Part shown: piece by piece, positions 1 through 5,181 of the stretch
Numbering within the stretch: the first letter of the stretch is position 1
Layout: each line of letters opens with the position of its first letter
Translations under genes and position numbers: made by a program
Source: a virus
UHGV virus genome: UHGV-0205084
DNA length: 5,181 nt
Reading direction: 5' to 3' (one strand)
The notes under the pieces: generated by a model
Database searches by the model: none
Seen by the model: the letters and a program-made list of their open reading frames with translations, nothing else
Told to the model about the DNA's origin: nothing

Positions 1-939
1 ATGCTATGTGTTAACCAAATACAAGTTCTGAATCCCAAGACGGGTAAATTTATTAAAGTCCCTTGTGGTACTTGTTACGCTTGTCAAAGTAATAAGCGCT
101 CGTCCTGGATGTTCCGTAATACGGTTGAACTAGAGTACTCACAGAGTGCGTTCTTCTGTACTCTTACATACAATGATACTGCCTTGCTGGGTCTTCCGTA
201 TCACGCTTCTTCTCAACTGCGAATGCCCTTGAAATATCATTATCAACGCTGGCTTAAGCGCTTGCGTAAAGCGTTACAGCCTGCTAAAGTTCGGTATTTC
301 TTGTGCCACGAGTATGGCGATGAGTCTCTACGTCCTCACTATCACGTTATACTGTATTTAGATCGGTCTATGTCTCTCACAGATATGCGCCGTCTTATAT
401 CTGATACTTGGACTAATGGTAATATACAGTGTGATTATGTTACCCCTGCTAGGATACATTATCTATCTAAGTACGTTACTAAGCAGTTCCGCAACGTGAA
501 AGTATCTGGTCGCTCAGTCGATTATATATTTAATCATGTGTGGGCAAATAGAGCTCTTCAGCATCGTTATATAGTCGAATTCTACCTCAAAAAGTTCTCG
601 TTTGTTGTAGCAAGTCAAGGCTTAGGTTGTCAGCTCCTGCGGGAGCCTGCTTTTATACGCTGGTTTTGGGATCACCTAGAGCCAGGTGAATCGTATCCTA
701 CTTATGTTATCGGAGGTCACTCCTATACGCTACCACGTATCTATTTGAAAAAGCTAGTGCCAGAGATATGGCGCGAAGCTATTACCCCCGATATATCGCC
801 CGAGGCTAAATATGCCCGTATGTCTGATATCGCGTCTGACGCTAATTTAACCGTAAAACAGTATGTGGAAAATGCGCGCTACATACAAGACCGTAAGTCT
901 ACCATTATCCGCGCTAATAACAAAAAATCCCCTTTGTAA
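1..939 (+). CDS. Replication initiation protein (Microviridae VP4 / phiX174 gene A-like superfamily I rolling-circle endonuclease)
   Basis: The 312-aa ORF carries a zinc-finger-like CGTCYAC (aa 22-28, nt 64-84), RCR motif 1 FFCTLTY (aa 51-57, nt 151-171) and HUH motif 2 HYHVILY (aa 113-119, nt 337-357). Motif 3 YLSKYVTK (aa 154-161, nt 460-483) has two tyrosines in the Y-x-x-K-Y-x-x-K arrangement seen in phiX174 gpA (YVAKYVNK). The ATG is at window position 1, so in a circular genome the upstream context lies at the window end. Confidence 0.9.
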   Translation: MLCVNQIQVLNPKTGKFIKVPCGTCYACQSNKRSSWMFRNTVELEYSQSAFFCTLTYNDTALLGLPYHASSQLRMPLKYHYQRWLKRLRKALQPAKVRYFLCHEYGDESLRPHYHVILYLDRSMSLTDMRRLISDTWTNGNIQCDYVTPARIHYLSKYVTKQFRNVKVSGRSVDYIFNHVWANRALQHRYIVEFYLKKFSFVVASQGLGCQLLREPAFIRWFWDHLEPGESYPTYVIGGHSYTLPRIYLKKLVPEIWREAITPDISPEAKYARMSDIASDANLTVKQYVENARYIQDRKSTIIRANNKKSPL

Positions 940-941
940 CT

Positions 942-1070
942 ATGAAGTTATCAAATCGCAAAGTCGGTTTCTTCGCTAGGTTGCGTAAGTTCCGAATCCC
1001 TGTGCTACTGCTATTGCTGGCAGTGGTTGTTGTCTGTGTTGCTTTCGGATGGTTTTCCTTTTTAGTCTAG
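942..1070 (+). CDS. Small hypothetical protein (42 aa): basic N-terminal 18 residues followed by a 22-residue hydrophobic helix, MKLSNRKVGFFARLRKFRIPVLLLLLAVVVVCVAFGWFSFLV. Candidate membrane/lysis protein or J/ORF8-like basic DNA-binding protein
   Basis: Not in the supplied ORF track (probably below its length cutoff). I translated it by hand: ATG at 942 is 2 nt after the Rep stop (937-939), and stop TAG at 1068-1070 is 6 nt before the next ATG at 1077. It therefore fills the Rep-to-ORF132 gap exactly, in a genome where every other gene is similarly abutted. It has 7 K/R in the first 18 residues, then a poly-Leu/Val segment of transmembrane length. Confidence 0.45.
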   Translation: MKLSNRKVGFFARLRKFRIPVLLLLLAVVVVCVAFGWFSFLV

Positions 1071-1076
1071 TATCTT

Positions 1077-1475
1077 ATGAACACTTGTAAGTATCGAAAT
1101 AATCCGTTTAATATACGGTATAATCCCGATAACAATTGGAAAGGTCAGACAGAGCCAAAGAATGGTTTCTGTCAATTTTCGGAGCTAAAGTACGGAGTTC
1201 GTGCCGCTTTTATTCTTGTCTATAACTATCGTAATCTTCACGACGCAAAAACACCTCGTGATATAATACGATATTGGGCACCGAAAGAAGATGGTAATGA
1301 TACCGCTGCTTATATATCCTTTGTCTCTCAGTTGTTGAATGAAGATGAGGATATAAATACTACCCTCGAGTATGTCGTTTTGCTGTACTCGATGTGGCAC
1401 GTTGAACAAGGTTGGACTCCTAGTATTTGGGAGTTTGCCCGCCTACTGAATTACTCACTTATTGAAGATCTATAA
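1077..1475 (+). CDS. Hypothetical accessory protein (132 aa), function unknown. N-terminal motif NPFNIRYNPDNNWKGQ (aa 9-24), basic N-half and acidic C-half
   Basis: An ORF with ATG start lying between Rep and VP1 on the coding strand. Its stop at 1473-1475 is 3 nt before the VP1 ATG at 1479. This position corresponds to the variable VP5/ORF8 region of gokushovirus genomes. I cannot place the sequence in a family from memory. Confidence 0.6.
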   Translation: MNTCKYRNNPFNIRYNPDNNWKGQTEPKNGFCQFSELKYGVRAAFILVYNYRNLHDAKTPRDIIRYWAPKEDGNDTAAYISFVSQLLNEDEDINTTLEYVVLLYSMWHVEQGWTPSIWEFARLLNYSLIEDL

Positions 1476-1478
1476 ACT

Positions 1479-3389
1479 ATGCCAAACCTAACTAAGTATT
1501 CACTTGACCACGAAGTTCGGTCGAGTTTTGAAATGGGTCAACTCATCCCATTTTTGTGCCAAGAGGTTGTACCAGGCGATAAGTATCGCGTGCAGTCTAG
1601 TACGCTCGTGCGTCTCCAGCCTATGTTATCCCCGCTGATGCATAGACTTGATTACTATCAAAGGTACTATTATGTGCCTTATCGTCTTCTCATACCTAAC
1701 TATGAGCAGTTACTGACAGATCCCGATAGTGGTAACACTGTTCCAGGTATGGATAAGTATCTACAATATACTGCGCATACCCTAAAGGATTTGTTCCTTG
1801 AAAAACCTCTGTTGGAGTATTTTGGTCTTGCATCGTCATTAGATGGTACTCACCCCGATAATGTGATTAAGGATCTTAATGCTACTCCTCTACTTGCTTA
1901 TTACCTTATATATAATCATTATTATATGAGGTCAGACCTTGATAAGCGTTATATTGACCAATTGCGCCCCGAAAACTTTACTAGTGCTGAGTTGCGCAAA
2001 TACATTGGTAATGTGATGTACGTTAATGAAGGACTTGATTATTTTACTTCTGCTAAGACTTCCACGCAGTACGGCAATATGGTACAGTTGGATATGGACG
2101 GCAATAATACCATTACTGTTCCTGAGATGCGTCTCGCTGAGCGTTTGCAGTCTTTCCGAGAGAGGTTGTTGAGAGTTGGTGGTAAGTACGTGAATTATAT
2201 TAAGGAGTTCTTCGGAGTCGAACCCCTTGACGCGAGAGTGCAAATACCTAAGTATCTAGGTGGTGACTCTTACGTGCTTAATGTGTCAGATGTTGACCAG
2301 ACAGCTCCCTCTGAACTTGGTTCAGTTGGTGAGAGTTATGGTAAGTCAGTGTCTGTTAATCGTACGGGTCAGATTCAATATGACGTTTACGAGCATGGTC
2401 TTATTATTGGTCTTCACTTTGTGCGCCCCCGTCCGTCAAATATAGGTGGCTGTCCTAAGCTATTTACTAGACGTACGTATTTTGATTTCTTCAATCCTCA
2501 CTTCTCCGCCTTGGGTTATCAAGAGATACAGGCGCGTGAACTTGATGTTGCACGACCAAAAGATGAAGCTTTCGGGTATGTACCGAGGTATGACGAGTAT
2601 CGTTATGGTAATGATATAGTTTCAGGTGATTTCAAGCGGTCTCTTGATTATTGGCATATGTCTAGAGATATAAGTAAGGAGAAGCTATCAGTTGACTTTG
2701 TGACTTGTCACCCAGATAATCGTGTGTTCTCGTTTCAAAATTCTAGGCCAGATCTTTGTCGTATTCAGATGACTGGTAATATCATTGGTGTTGGTGCTGT
2801 TGGTACTTCGAAGTTCTTGCTAGATGGTTATGCTTGGATTCCAAAGAGTGCTTTGACGCAAGGTTCTGATATCATGTTCTCTATTTCTAAGGAATCTATA
2901 GCTAATGATTCTAAGTTATTATTTATGGGTAAACTCTCATCTTTTCAAGATGTTGATAGTGTTAGTTTAGTTCCTGGTCGAGTTGATCAAGACTCATTAT
3001 TTTTTAATACCTGGACTAAAGGTACTGATGTGTCTAATCGGTTTGATTTGGATAGAAATACTATCATTGAGATTCACGAAGATGATTATTCAAGTAGAGC
3101 TTCATTAGGTTCTTTATCTTATATTTCCTTTGGTGGTGAGACTTATCCGTTTTTGCTTGATGTTCGTAAGACTATACAGTTAACTAATGCGATGGATTCC
3201 TCTTCTATTGCTATTTTTAATGATGGCGAGAATGGTTTTAAGCAATTAGTTTCTTTTCCTCTAGGGTTTTATACTCTTATGCCTTATGATACTGCTAAGC
3301 CTATGGATAATCACGTATTGTCTGTGACTTACAATAATGTGGACGTATTGCGTCCTCTAGCTCGTTATGACGGTAATGTGTTAAGATGA
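1479..3389 (+). CDS. Major capsid protein VP1 (phiX174 F-like) of Microviridae
   Basis: The 636-aa ORF has an N-terminal region (...FEMGQLIPFLCQEVVPGDKYRVQSSTLVRLQPMLSPLMHRLDYYQRYYYVPYRLL, aa 17-71, with the PGD at aa 32-34) that matches the conserved N-terminal beta-strand region of gokushovirus VP1. Size and position (immediately upstream of VP2) fit as well. Confidence 0.88.
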   Translation: MPNLTKYSLDHEVRSSFEMGQLIPFLCQEVVPGDKYRVQSSTLVRLQPMLSPLMHRLDYYQRYYYVPYRLLIPNYEQLLTDPDSGNTVPGMDKYLQYTAHTLKDLFLEKPLLEYFGLASSLDGTHPDNVIKDLNATPLLAYYLIYNHYYMRSDLDKRYIDQLRPENFTSAELRKYIGNVMYVNEGLDYFTSAKTSTQYGNMVQLDMDGNNTITVPEMRLAERLQSFRERLLRVGGKYVNYIKEFFGVEPLDARVQIPKYLGGDSYVLNVSDVDQTAPSELGSVGESYGKSVSVNRTGQIQYDVYEHGLIIGLHFVRPRPSNIGGCPKLFTRRTYFDFFNPHFSALGYQEIQARELDVARPKDEAFGYVPRYDEYRYGNDIVSGDFKRSLDYWHMSRDISKEKLSVDFVTCHPDNRVFSFQNSRPDLCRIQMTGNIIGVGAVGTSKFLLDGYAWIPKSALTQGSDIMFSISKESIANDSKLLFMGKLSSFQDVDSVSLVPGRVDQDSLFFNTWTKGTDVSNRFDLDRNTIIEIHEDDYSSRASLGSLSYISFGGETYPFLLDVRKTIQLTNAMDSSSIAIFNDGENGFKQLVSFPLGFYTLMPYDTAKPMDNHVLSVTYNNVDVLRPLARYDGNVLR

Positions 3390-3395
3390 TAAGTT

Positions 3396-4430
3396 ATGGA
3401 TCCCGTTACTATTGCAGGTCTTGCAGGTGCAGGCGCTAGTCTTGTCGGAGGTCTTATAAATAATGCTTGGTCTGATGCTCGTACAGAGAAACAGTACAGG
3501 CAAATGAATGAGATGCAAGATAAGATGAACGCATATAATGCGCCCGTTGCTCAAATGGCTCGCTTGCGTGCGGCTGGATTGAATCCTAATCTTGTGTATG
3601 CGAATGGTGGTGCTGTTATGCAGTCCGCTGTCGGTAATGCTCCGAACCCTCCTAACTCTGCCCCGATTGACACTCAGGGAGTGTTACAGATGGTGCAGAC
3701 GATTGTCGGTGGTATGCTAGAAAAGGATAAGATACAAGCTCAGAAAGATATGCAGTCAGAGCAGATTACTGCTAATAAGGATTTGCAGACTGAGAAGATT
3801 ACTGCCGATAAGGATATGCAGTCTACTCAGATTGGTGCAACTAAGGATTTACAGACTGAGCAGATTACTGCTAATAAAGAGATGCAAAAAACTCAGATTG
3901 ATTCAACTGAAAAGATTGCTTCTGAGAATCGTGCTGAAAACGCTCGTCAGTTTGATTTGTCTTTTGAACAGCAGAAGCGTGTTGATGCTATGCGTTTATC
4001 TATTGATAGGAGTTTGGCAAATTCTCAAATAGCTTTGCATTCTTCTCAAATTGAGATTAATCGTTTGTCTGCTAATTTGTCTCGCCAGCTTGAACCTTTT
4101 TTGGTTGATAAGGCTAAGTTAGATTCTTTGTCTTCTCAGTTTTCTTTTAGTAATGAAAAGTTAGAGACTTTTCTTTCTCGTCCGTATGAGATTTCAGTTA
4201 CTGATTTAGAGAACGCTTATAAAGATGCTGGTTTGTCTGTTCCTAGTGCTTTTGGATTGTCTCAAATGGTAGATTATCATAATGAGGCCGTTAAAGCTTG
4301 GAATCAAGAAGTTAAAACTAATAGGACAAAACTTTCTGATGATGAGTTTTATTCTGGTTGGATGCATCTTTGGAATGCTATTTCTGCTCCTACTCAGATG
4401 GCTACTTCTTTGCTTTTCAAGAAGAAGTAG
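3396..4430 (+). CDS. Minor capsid / DNA pilot protein VP2 (phiX174 H-like)
   Basis: The N-terminus is Gly/Ala-rich and hydrophobic (AGLAGAGASLVGGLI, aa 7-21). The hallmark AQMARLRAAGLNPNLVY (AAGLNP at aa 59-64, nt 3570-3587) is found in Microviridae VP2 proteins. A central tandem 11-aa repeat predicted to form a coiled coil resembles the phiX174 H tube domain. The ORF sits immediately downstream of VP1. Confidence 0.8.
   Translation: MDPVTIAGLAGAGASLVGGLINNAWSDARTEKQYRQMNEMQDKMNAYNAPVAQMARLRAAGLNPNLVYANGGAVMQSAVGNAPNPPNSAPIDTQGVLQMVQTIVGGMLEKDKIQAQKDMQSEQITANKDLQTEKITADKDMQSTQIGATKDLQTEQITANKEMQKTQIDSTEKIASENRAENARQFDLSFEQQKRVDAMRLSIDRSLANSQIALHSSQIEINRLSANLSRQLEPFLVDKAKLDSLSSQFSFSNEKLETFLSRPYEISVTDLENAYKDAGLSVPSAFGLSQMVDYHNEAVKAWNQEVKTNRTKLSDDEFYSGWMHLWNAISAPTQMATSLLFKKK
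3747..3911 (+). repeat. Five tandem 33-nt repeats (hendecad 11-aa units DMQSEQITANK / DLQTEKITADK / DMQSTQIGATK / DLQTEQITANK / EMQKTQIDSTE) inside VP2, with degenerate flanking copies extending to about 3723..3941
   Basis: Direct reading. Units are 3747-3779, 3780-3812, 3813-3845, 3846-3878 and 3879-3911. Unit 1 and unit 4 are 28/33 nt identical. Odd and even units alternate (gatatgcagtc... versus gatttgcagactgag...), which suggests a duplicated 66-nt higher-order unit. Confidence 0.9.
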
Positions 4431-4462
4431 TATATTTGCCTTGTACTAATCAATTTAAGTGT

Positions 4463-4603
4463 ATGAATATATTTATCAACTATGTTCTTTATCCCTTGTT
4501 GGTGATATTTTGGTTCCTTGTATTCGTATGGCTTGTTTTGCTTCTTGCAAGGTCTATATGTCGTATTATTAAACAATTTCGTAATGGAAAAGAGAAGTTA
4601 TAA
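4463..4603 (+). CDS. Small hypothetical membrane protein (46 aa): MNIFINYVLYPLLVIFWFLVFVWLVLLLARSICRIIKQFRNGKEKL. One transmembrane helix followed by a basic C-terminal tail. Candidate lysis/holin-like protein
   Basis: First ATG after the VP2 stop (4428-4430) in the frame that the track lists as 4358..4603. It occupies the otherwise unexplained 150-nt VP2-VP3 gap and overlaps the VP3-like start by about 20 nt. Caveat: the region is T-rich, so hydrophobic translations appear in more than one frame. Confidence 0.35.
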   Translation: MNIFINYVLYPLLVIFWFLVFVWLVLLLARSICRIIKQFRNGKEKL

Positions 4604-4880
4604 GTATGTGGCTCGTGTGCCACAGAGTGTAGTGTCTGACACTTTACCGAATCAGACTGTAGACTTGTCTGTACTTGTTAAGCAGTTAATGGACGGTCAA
4701 GCACTTAATGTTGGATTATCATTGTCTGAGGACACTTCGGACACTCTAGACACTCCAGATATTACTAAGTATGATTTCCGTCATATGACAGTATCTGATG
4801 TAGATAATCTATTGTCTAAGGTTCAGCCGGTGCAGGTTGATGTGCCAGCTGAGACCGGTACGGCTCCCGTAGCCGATTGA
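4584..4880 (+). CDS. Putative internal scaffolding protein (VP3-like), acidic, 98 aa from ATG 4584. The track's longer version starts at TTG 4518
   Basis: Position after VP2 matches the gokushovirus VP1-VP2-VP3 order. It is acidic (D/E-rich: SEDTSDTLDTPDITKYDF...), as scaffolding proteins are. The first in-frame ATG is at 4584 (MEKRSYKYVARV...), whereas the track start at 4518 is a TTG. I do not recognise any sequence motif, so the call rests on position and composition only. Confidence 0.4.
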   Translation: MEKRSYKYVARVPQSVVSDTLPNQTVDLSVLVKQLMDGQALNVGLSLSEDTSDTLDTPDITKYDFRHMTVSDVDNLLSKVQPVQVDVPAETGTAPVAD

Positions 4881-4890
4881 TATTAATGGG
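4875..4890 (+). promoter_or_regulatory. Candidate (+)-strand replication origin nick site: gattgatattaatggg contains TTGATATTAAT, identical to the core of the phiX174 gpA cleavage site (CAACTTG^ATATTAATAAC)
   Basis: Exact 11-nt identity at 4877-4887 to the phiX174 origin as I remember it. It overlaps the VP3-like stop codon (TGA 4878-4880) and sits at the 5' edge of the structured intergenic region. The predicted nick would fall between G4879 and A4880. Confidence 0.4.
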
Positions 4891-4989
4891 TGCGGGGGCT
4901 GATGGCTTGTCCATTGCCCCCCTCACCTCTTTTGAGGTGGGGGCAATGGCATTTTGCCGAACCAGTCCTTCGGACTGCCCCCCCGCCCG
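4888..4989 (+). repeat. GC-rich island with nested inverted repeats built from four homopolymer tracts: G5 (4894-4898), C6 (4917-4922), G5 (4939-4943) and C7 (4978-4984). An outer imperfect stem (gggtgcgggggc 4888-4899 with gcccccccgcccg 4977-4989) encloses the 4911-4949 hairpin and a 6-bp hairpin cagtcc-ttc-ggactg (4963-4977)
   Basis: Direct reading. About 10 of 12 positions of the outer arms are complementary. The G and C tracts can also pair in the alternative register G5(4894) with C6(4917) and G5(4939) with C7(4978). Confidence 0.6.
4911..4956 (+). terminator. GC-rich hairpin (16 bp with a 3-nt bulge, TTTT loop) followed by cATTTTg. Possible intrinsic terminator after the VP3-like gene and/or ssDNA structural element
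   Basis: Left arm ccattgcccccctcacctc (4911-4929), loop tttt (4930-4933), right arm gaggtgggggcaatgg (4934-4949), T-run 4952-4955. Pairing was verified base by base. Confidence 0.45.
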
Positions 4990-5009
4990 TTAATTATCAC
5001 GAGAGAGCA

Positions 5010-5040
5010 GGCGATTACTCTTACTTGACATGTAATCGCC
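5010..5040 (+). promoter_or_regulatory. Perfect 9-bp inverted repeat ggcgattac / gtaatcgcc with a 13-nt loop tcttacttgacat carrying a consensus -35 hexamer TTGACA (5025-5030). Possible Rep promoter or operator element
   Basis: Arms are 5010-5018 and 5032-5040, verified base by base. No well-spaced TATAAT follows; the nearest -10-like hexamers are tgtaat at 5031-5036 (wrong spacing) and tatatt at 5061-5066. The promoter role is therefore tentative. Confidence 0.3.
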
Positions 5041-5181
5041 AAGTGACACCACGATACAAATATATTGTGGTGTTGTCTCTCTAAATAATTTGTAGTACAT
5101 TTGTGCCAGAGCTAGGTAACAATTCATTCTTAAATTTATTGATGCCTGCTTTTGGACTAAACGTATAACTCATTCTGACAA

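Follow-up and report, generated by a model that had tools for sequence, protein, structure and literature searches.

A 42-residue predicted membrane peptide encoded upstream of an Enc34-type endolysin gene in a temperate Porphyromonas microvirus: a candidate holin-like protein

Protein E of phiX174 has an N-terminal transmembrane domain (TMD) with a conserved Pro and a basic C-terminal part, and the L protein of MS2 has a basic region, a hydrophobic region and a conserved Leu-Ser dipeptide. The model holins have 70 amino acid residues or more and are longer than the 42-residue peptide described here. Outside the phiX174 group, little has been described of the way in which microviruses lyse their hosts, and among their accessory peptidases and lysins one, Gp7 of the microvirus Ebor, has been shown to be active. 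Lysis-associated accessory genes are known in several microvirus families (PMC3394797, PMC9239249, PMC11980548). The Ebor genome carries a dif motif and encodes, in addition to the experimentally active lysin Gp7, a 45-aa predicted membrane protein of unassigned role, Gp1 (PMC11980548). Searches of the accessible literature on Microviridae turned up no earlier account of a holin and no proposal of a membrane partner for the accessory lysins or peptidases. Two further systems are important for comparison. In phi6 the holin P10 and the endolysin P5 are encoded separately, and small TMD ORFs nearby may contribute (PMC12819732). In the Enc34 endolysin the catalytic domain (family PHA02564) carries a C-terminal TM segment; this domain is muralytic by experiment, and Glu131, Trp79 and Tyr95 are its proposed catalytic residues (PMC8943055).

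The window, i.e. the whole stretch of 5,181 nucleotides that was analysed (UHGV-0205084), looks like a complete microvirus genome, and its genes all lie on the + strand. Rep, the rolling-circle initiator (PF23343, phrog_942), is encoded at positions 1..939, the major capsid protein (Phage_F) at 1479-3389 and the DNA pilot protein at 3396-4430. Between Rep and the capsid gene are ORF42 (942..1070), the subject of this study, and ORF132 (1077..1475). A 46-aa membrane ORF at 4463..4603 overlaps the start of ORF98 (4584-4880), an acidic 98-aa ORF that is scaffold-like by position. The remaining part, about 4881-5181, is a non-coding stretch of about 300 nt with G+C-rich hairpins. No Shine-Dalgarno-like sequences were seen upstream of the genes in the window, in keeping with Bacteroidota.

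An integrated copy of this virus is present in "Uncultured Porphyromonas sp. UMGS166", 92% identical to the window and colinear with its positions 1-5178. Other integrated copies adjoin Bacteroidales-type genes, for example those for fimbrillin and conjugative-transposon DUF4133/4134. A dif-like attachment sequence, ACTAAACGTATAACTCATTCT, is located at 5156..5176 (+ strand), just upstream of Rep, and occurs as one copy in the window; it was matched in none of 200 shuffles. On both sides of the prophage copies there are imperfect direct repeats of ACTAAACRTWWAWCYCATTCT, of which L019, a Porphyromonas contig, has two copies. Integration of this dif-like, integrase-free type is known for Bacteroidales microvirus proviruses of the "BMV"/Alpavirinae group (PMC3091885). 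Judged from these sequences, the virus is a temperate microvirus that integrates at dif-like sites in Porphyromonas and is not a classical lytic gokushovirus. A reading made from the window sequence alone, before any database search (below, the sequence-only reading), had treated it as a gokushovirus, a group said to have no recognised lysis gene. This description is not supported, since the virus integrates at dif-like repeats in Porphyromonas and lysis-associated genes are known in microviruses. As the prophage copies lie in Porphyromonas, the host is taken to be a diderm member of the Bacteroidota.

ORF42 starts with an ATG at 942 and ends with a TAG stop at 1068-1070; its product is the 42-aa peptide MKLSNRKVGFFARLRKFRIPVLLLLLAVVVVCVAFGWFSFLV. 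In the window the Rep stop ends at 939 and is separated from the ORF42 ATG by a 2-nt spacer, and a second spacer of 6 nt (1071..1076) leads to the ATG of ORF132 at 1077, with which ORF42 is in frame in this genome. The sequence-only reading had proposed an ORF at 942-1070 filling the gap between Rep and ORF132, with a basic N-terminus and a C-terminal TM tail. Its coordinates, peptide and both spacers are exact. Residues 1-20 contain seven K/R and no D/E, the 22 residues that follow are hydrophobic, and the layout of a basic N-terminus and a C-terminal TM helix is kept in every variant.

The relatives used for comparison comprise GenBank genomes (L001-L005), IMG/VR genomes (L006-L009), metagenome assemblies with identical or similar peptides (P0001-P0004, L022-L027) and further contigs reached via ORF132 and Rep (L012-L015, L019, L033-L038). 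The GenBank relatives are five microviruses from human samples with 81-88% nucleotide identity to the window. ORF42 is intact in every one of the 30 assessable related loci, which represent 20 distinct nucleotide versions, and ORF132 is directly downstream in every genome that has ORF42. The ORF has 42 codons, except in the most divergent subclade (64% identity in ORF132), where it has 44. Indels in the 30 loci are confined to the spacers flanking ORF42 and none is found inside the ORF. The spacer between the Rep stop and the ORF42 ATG is 1, 2 or 6 nt across the relatives, and that between the ORF42 stop and the ORF132 ATG is 4, 6, 7 or 8 nt in the 31 sequences (the window and the 30 loci). 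The stop codon of ORF42 also varies, TAG, TGA and TAA all being used.

Two possible fusions were considered at this point. Because the spacer to ORF132 is variable and three stop codons are used, a conserved stop-codon readthrough or SAR-type fusion of ORF42 with ORF132, which the in-frame TAG of the window and the TM-fused enzyme of L020 had suggested, is excluded. An extension of Rep into ORF42 is likewise rejected, since with a variable spacer the frame relation to Rep is not conserved.

The basic segment of ORF42 corresponds to codons 1-20 (942..1001, + strand). It consists of a variable tip, residues 2-8, and a conserved juxtamembrane motif, G9-F-F-x-x-L-R15-K/R-F/Y-R18-I/V-P20; residues K7, G9, F10, F11, R15, R18 and P20 are invariant. 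A Tat signal at the RR/RK motif was rejected, because the motif departs from the consensus, the hydrophobicity of the h-region is too high and a passenger domain is lacking. The TM helix, codons 21-42 (1002..1067, + strand), is hydrophobic without interruption up to the last residue, with C32 and F35-G36-W37 invariant. The C-termini are ..FGWFSFLV or ..FGWSVILI, and the protein ends inside the hydrophobic helix. Replacements among the variants are hydrophobic-for-hydrophobic throughout this segment, and each variant retains the TM strength and the charge distribution. The best 19-residue Kyte-Doolittle mean (KD19) of ORF42 is 2.88 (residues 19-37), whereas phiX174 E reaches 2.79 and phiX174 J -0.95. 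The summed Hessa-scale value of the TM segment is -3.3. AlphaFold2 predicts one helix spanning residues 7-41. The invariant Cys32, the only Cys of the peptide, was considered as a lipoprotein or u-spanin site and rejected: V or L at position -1 gives no lipobox, ten residues follow, and there is no periplasmic domain.

It is important to establish whether such a short ORF is a gene. An ATG ORF of at least 40 aa appeared in 94 of 20,000 shuffles (0.5%) of the 137-nt gap between Rep and ORF132. The T content is 33% genome-wide and 41% in this gap; since chance hydrophobic off-frame ORFs are common in the T-rich DNA of related microviruses, hydrophobicity alone is not evidence. The case for a gene rests instead on conservation and on the pattern of substitutions, as read from the aligned sequences. 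For ORF42 pS is 0.52 and pN/pS 0.32; in the same genomes the values are 0.47 and 0.19 for Rep and 0.50 and 0.17 for ORF132. Read in the +1 and +2 frames, the ORF42 region gives pN/pS values of 1.05 and 2.4, respectively, with 1-5 stops per sequence in each. The variable alignment columns are distributed over codon positions 1, 2 and 3 as 25, 12 and 38 (of 42 codons). Within the ORF, pN/pS is lowest in residues 9-20 (0.22, the most constrained part), 0.29 in the TM helix and 0.63 in the loose N-terminal tip. A pS close to that of the neighbours together with a pN/pS of 0.32 points to constraint at the protein level and not at the DNA level. The sequence-only reading had left the matter to frame conservation and to the balance of synonymous and non-synonymous change in relatives. 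Both speak for the gene, as the frame is intact in 30 of 30 loci and pN/pS is well below 1. ORF42 is thus very probably a translated gene. The reverse-strand frame across the ORF42 region was found to be stop-free in all sequences, with a pN/pS of 0.48, above that of ORF42; it contains no ORF of at least 25 aa with a start codon, and the other identified genes are all on one strand.

ORF42 is not annotated in any of the five GenBank relatives (L001-L005), which suggests that 40-codon genes are systematically absent from GenBank microvirus annotations. It was called by automatic gene callers on metagenome assemblies. Searches of Pfam, NCBIfam and PADLOC with ORF42 gave no match, PHROG gave a single match (E 0.08) to a family of unknown function, and ORF42 belongs to no holin family described in Pfam, PHROG or NCBIfam. 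A word-indexed search of 5.8 billion proteins returned four ORF42 clusters, all of 42 aa and 81-95% identical. A full HMMER profile search of 1.84 billion representative proteins found only the cluster of ORF42 itself, so that no distant family can be claimed for it.

The closest outgroup, L016/L028, has an ORF132 homologue of 60% identity whose start is overlapped by the Rep stop, and ORF42 is absent. Because this outgroup is without ORF42, the gene appears to have been inserted recently into one clade or to have arisen there de novo; its loss in the L016/L028 sister clade would be a less parsimonious origin. The retention of the endolysin in L016/L028 also indicates that ORF42 is not required for an enzyme of the ORF132 type to be useful. 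ORF42 would illustrate how a very short gene can arise between tightly packed genes and come under purifying selection.

The gene downstream, ORF132 (1077..1475, + strand), encodes a lysozyme-like peptidoglycan hydrolase of the Enc34 type (PHA02564) with neither a signal peptide nor a TM segment. [quoted passage not shown] The AlphaFold2 model has a pLDDT of 84 and aligns by Foldseek with 7Q47 over the full length (prob 1.0, TMq 0.68, 151 aligned columns); no other PDB entry was found below E = 1. Residues W67 and Y79, which are conserved in the family, align with the WAP and AY positions of Enc34. Glu110, in the sequence HVEQG, is nearly invariant in the family and resembles the HENG of Enc34, and we infer that it may be equivalent to the catalytic Glu. 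Taken together, sequence and model indicate that ORF132 is an Enc34-type endolysin. Its best KD19 is 0.88; a hydrophobic segment is absent, and with it any export signal. In L020 the same catalytic domain is part of a 181-aa protein with an N-terminal TM segment.

The arrangement of these two genes allows us to propose, tentatively but as a quite plausible reading, that ORF42 is the holin-like membrane component of a two-gene lysis cassette, ORF42-ORF132. In a diderm host such as Porphyromonas a cytoplasmic endolysin needs a route through the inner membrane. In addition, the genome encodes a muralytic enzyme, which is more readily reconciled with a holin and an endolysin than with an Sgl that works without an enzyme. 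ORF42 is small with at least one predicted TM domain, and its gene is located upstream of the endolysin gene in 31 of 31 sequences, as expected of a holin. The charged hydrophilic C-terminal domain that is also expected is lacking, all charge being in residues 1-20. The sequence-only reading had likened ORF42 to single-gene lysis proteins such as MS2 L. A lysis-related role is indeed the most plausible one, but the single-gene analogy is not supported, since an endolysin gene, which that reading had not recognised, adjoins ORF42 and the conserved Leu-Ser dipeptide is absent from the ORF42 alignment.

The proposed mechanism is as follows. ORF42 would be a tail-anchored peptide of the inner membrane. 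By the positive-inside rule its basic 20 N-terminal residues would remain in the cytoplasm, probably flat against the membrane, while residues 21-42 would cross the bilayer and the C-terminus would just enter the periplasm. As the whole peptide is about as long as the ribosomal exit tunnel, we infer that insertion is post-translational, either spontaneous or assisted by YidC. The tight spacing is compatible with coupled translation, and the 4-8 nt between the two genes suggest that ORF42 and ORF132 could be made together. Late in infection, or upon prophage induction, ORF42 would build up in the inner membrane and permeabilise it in the manner of a holin, and the signal-less ORF132 would then reach the peptidoglycan. 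The product of 4463-4603 may act alongside ORF42 as a co-holin, an antiholin or an outer-membrane disruptor. Other microviruses with Enc34-type lysins (L017, L018, L029-L032) have no consistent small TM ORF directly upstream of the lysin gene, so the ORF42-ORF132 arrangement cannot be generalised to them.

A role of ORF42 in the membrane but outside lysis is the first alternative to be weighed: superinfection exclusion by the prophage, anchoring of replication or assembly to the membrane, or control of burst size as by phiX174 K. The virus is temperate, ORF42 directly follows Rep in the way that K follows gene A in phiX174, and a clade-specific recent addition that is dispensable in relatives would resemble the accessory "moron"-type genes. 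However, ORF42 is embedded in a tight unidirectional gene string with 1-8-nt spacers and no promoter-sized gap, PADLOC gives no match for it, and its co-occurrence and adjacency with the endolysin gene are complete. Such a role is unlikely, although it deserves to be kept in mind.

The second small membrane ORF of the genome raises a different question, namely whether the true holin is the product of 4463-4603 and ORF42 is a regulator or accessory of lysis (an antiholin, a co-holin subunit or a disruptor of the outer membrane or envelope). The 46-aa product has a KD19 of 2.88 and the classical holin layout, an N-terminal TM helix and then a highly basic C-tail, which is more holin-like than the layout of ORF42. 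An ORF of this type is annotated in GenBank (L001) and was called by metagenome gene callers. Of 16 genomes scanned, nine showed the ORF98 landmark motif, and all nine have such an ORF in the corresponding place; the motif was not detected in the other seven. The nine include the L016 clade, which lacks ORF42, and in L016/L028 there is no small membrane ORF besides this counterpart. For phi6, holins of several components and small TMD proteins in their vicinity have been discussed (PMC12819732). Nevertheless, it is ORF42 and not the 4463-4603 ORF that adjoins the endolysin gene, and the sequence of ORF42 has changed far less among relatives than that of the 46-aa ORF, whose TM sequence is hypervariable. 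As an envelope disruptor ORF42 would be poorly suited, since its extramembrane part of 20 residues is too short to cross the periplasm like a spanin and a lipobox is absent. We regard this assignment of roles as distinctly unlikely.

It is quite improbable that ORF42 acts as a stand-alone single-gene lysis protein or membrane toxin while ORF132 serves as a virion-associated entry enzyme. The peptide has the small size and the basic and hydrophobic layout that this would require. In many phages Enc34-type domains are annotated as virion or structural proteins, so ORF132 could be an enzyme of entry instead of an endolysin, and the Ebor lysin was found in virions in trace amounts (PMC11980548). 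However, a muralytic enzyme is encoded directly downstream of ORF42, the sister clade L016/L028 manages without ORF42, and the architecture is inverted relative to phiX174 E, with the L-type Leu-Ser motif missing.

The substitution data given above bear directly on the view that ORF42 is not a gene at all, being either a chance open frame under DNA-level constraint or the remnant signal-anchor of a once-fused endolysin. Hydrophobic off-frame ORFs do arise frequently in T-rich microvirus DNA; in the window only TAG and 6 nt separate ORF42 from ORF132 and the two share a frame, and the L020 enzyme has an N-terminal TM fusion. Against the chance frame, the pS of ORF42 is similar to that of its neighbours, with no extra DNA-level constraint apparent, pN/pS is 0.32, and third positions vary in 38 of 42 codons while second positions vary in 12. 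Against the remnant, the length of ORF42 is fixed while the 4/6/7/8-nt spacer does not conserve the in-frame relation, and the outgroup microvirus lysins have no N-terminal TM segment. Either form of this view is very improbable.

Finally, a DNA-binding packaging protein of the J/VP8 type, which the sequence-only reading had offered as an alternative (J/ORF8) and which the strongly basic 20 N-terminal residues and the lack of any other small Arg/Lys-rich ORF in the ORF list of the window might recall, is scarcely credible, since a 22-residue segment with a KD19 of 2.88, equal in hydrophobicity to the TM segment of phiX174 E, would enter the membrane, J (-0.95) and the Arg-rich VP8-like ORF of the distant relative L040, MAYYRKRGSYGRRSYGRRRRYGTKPLRRYYVSRGGVRL, have no hydrophobic span, and the sister clade L016/L028 does without ORF42.

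The holin-like reading of ORF42 is therefore retained as the most likely of those considered. A wider form of it, in which ORF42 is a recently born gene between Rep and an acquired Enc34-type endolysin gene, is the first holin of a microvirus and, with the 4463-4603 ORF, part of a multi-component lysis of the tailed-phage style, is possible but more doubtful. If true, ORF42 would be among the smallest holins, with an N-terminal charge and a C-terminal TMD that place it outside the usual holin classes, and lysis by an ssDNA phage would be multi-component, replacing the single-gene lysis known from phiX174. With ORF42, ORF132 and ORF 4463-4603 the locus offers a compact and testable set of three candidates; the phage is temperate, and its host genus, Porphyromonas, is clinically relevant.

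Comparison with the known systems shows where the locus stands. Like phiX174 J and the gokushovirus VP8, ORF42 is small with a basic N-terminal half, but those proteins have no membrane-spanning segment. Like phiX174 E and MS2 L it is a tiny membrane peptide of a phage that combines a single hydrophobic helix with a basic region, and its gene, like theirs, is young and lineage-specific. However, the order of the two parts in E, an N-terminal TMD and a C-terminal basic part, is reversed in ORF42, and neither E nor L is accompanied by a muralytic enzyme of the phage, while the genome of ORF42 encodes one next door.

Ebor is likewise a microvirus with a dif motif, an accessory peptidoglycan hydrolase and a predicted membrane protein of about 45 aa. 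It differs in its microvirus lineage and its host, Rhodobacter, and the best HHpred match of its lysin is another structure, 6SSC. By gene numbering Gp1 and Gp7 are not neighbours, and in the paper Gp1 is not described as a holin; the ORF42 profile search matched its own cluster only. The phi6 pair P10/P5 is similar in that a small non-tailed phage has a separate holin and muralytic enzyme with no outer-membrane disruptor identified (PMC12819732). However, phi6 is an enveloped dsRNA virus, its P10 and P5 are encoded on different segments, and there is no sequence relationship to ORF42. The Enc34 enzyme, ORF39, has its catalytic domain in common with ORF132; it is tied to a TM element, and the cassette has a small holin-like protein (PMC8943055). 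There the TM domain has two helices at the C-terminus of the same polypeptide, whereas here one TM helix is encoded by a separate upstream gene.

The holins, a functional class of many unrelated families that includes lambda S, T4 T and T7 gp17.5, provide the remaining comparison. ORF42 differs from them in its single TMD at the extreme C-terminus, its N-terminal basic domain and its lack of a family match. It resembles them as a small, putative inner-membrane protein with low sequence constraint except for hydrophobicity, whose gene directly precedes that of a soluble endolysin without a signal sequence, the host of the phage being a diderm.

By its sequence and predicted fold, ORF132 (1077-1475) is a lysozyme-like endolysin of the Enc34 type (PHA02564). 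It was an unnamed ORF in the sequence-only reading, and in GenBank relatives it is a "hypothetical protein" or is left unannotated. Only the TAG stop codon and TATCTT (1068-1076) part it from the small basic, membrane-spanning ORF42, and the two genes are in the same frame. A membrane-anchored endolysin produced by readthrough of this TAG would resemble a 181-aa protein encoded at 570-1115 of contig L020, in which an N-terminal basic-plus-transmembrane (TM) segment is fused to an Enc34-type lysin domain. This possibility was rejected, because the frame relation varies among relatives, and the shared frame is therefore regarded as a coincidence. The context in L020 is not that of a microvirus, since this 3.4-kb contig is binned as Mycobacteriaceae and the lysin gene adjoins a PIN-like toxin gene.

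The sister clade is represented by a prophage within a 55-kb contig (L016, 3066-4384 and 6389-7566), with which L028 is grouped. In the L016 locus the lysin start is overlapped by Rep (ATGA) and ORF42 is absent. The pilot gene of this prophage is split into a 177-aa and a 204-aa ORF, suggesting either that the prophage is decaying or that the assembly is wrong here. A distant relative, L040, with a Rep 41% identical, has a classic VP8/J-like Arg-rich ORF of 38 aa just upstream of Rep (1317-1433); no comparable small Arg-rich ORF is present in the ORF list of the window.

A dif-like sequence, ACTAAACGTATAACTCATTCT, is located at 5156-5176, shortly before the start of Rep. Where the virus is integrated, in contigs of Porphyromonas and of other Bacteroidales type, the copies are bounded by imperfect direct repeats of this sequence, as at 4893-4913 and 10079-10099 of the Porphyromonas contig L019. 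These copies occupy several different chromosomal sites, and the virus is therefore temperate; it probably uses the host XerC/D. The linear ends of the window and the ends of the prophage coincide. The adjacent non-coding region (4881-5155) contains G+C-rich inverted repeats with 11-nt arms at 4911-4921/4939-4949 and 5046-5056/5063-5073, and may be an origin or terminator region. A 64-aa "hypothetical protein" annotated over the equivalent stretch of the GenBank relative OP549878 looks spurious.

An internal repeat, offset by 66 nt, is present in the pilot protein (3744-3908, QKDMQSEQITANKDLQTEKITADKDMQSTQIGATKDLQTEQITANKEMQ...) and was seen as off-diagonal BLAST hits between the window and L019. 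The 3' end of the pilot gene carries, in a different frame, an overprinted hydrophobic ORF of 55 aa (4282-4449, MRPLKLGIKKLKL...LLLLRWLLLCFSRRSSIFALY). L019, which is 92% identical, retains this ORF, but the equivalent stretch reads quite differently in the relatives L005, L023 and L024. T-rich sequence has probably produced the ORF as a side effect.

A second small membrane ORF, of 46 aa, is found at 4463-4603 and overlaps the start of the acidic ORF98. Of the 16 genomes scanned, nine yielded the ORF98 landmark motif, and all nine, among them the clade without ORF42, have a counterpart of the 46-aa ORF at the unchanged position. The TM sequence is almost completely different even where genomes share 80-90% identity overall. 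The arrangement of an N-terminal TM helix, Pro11 and a basic C-terminal tail (..FRNGKEKL) is similar to the layout of phiX174 E and of classical holins.
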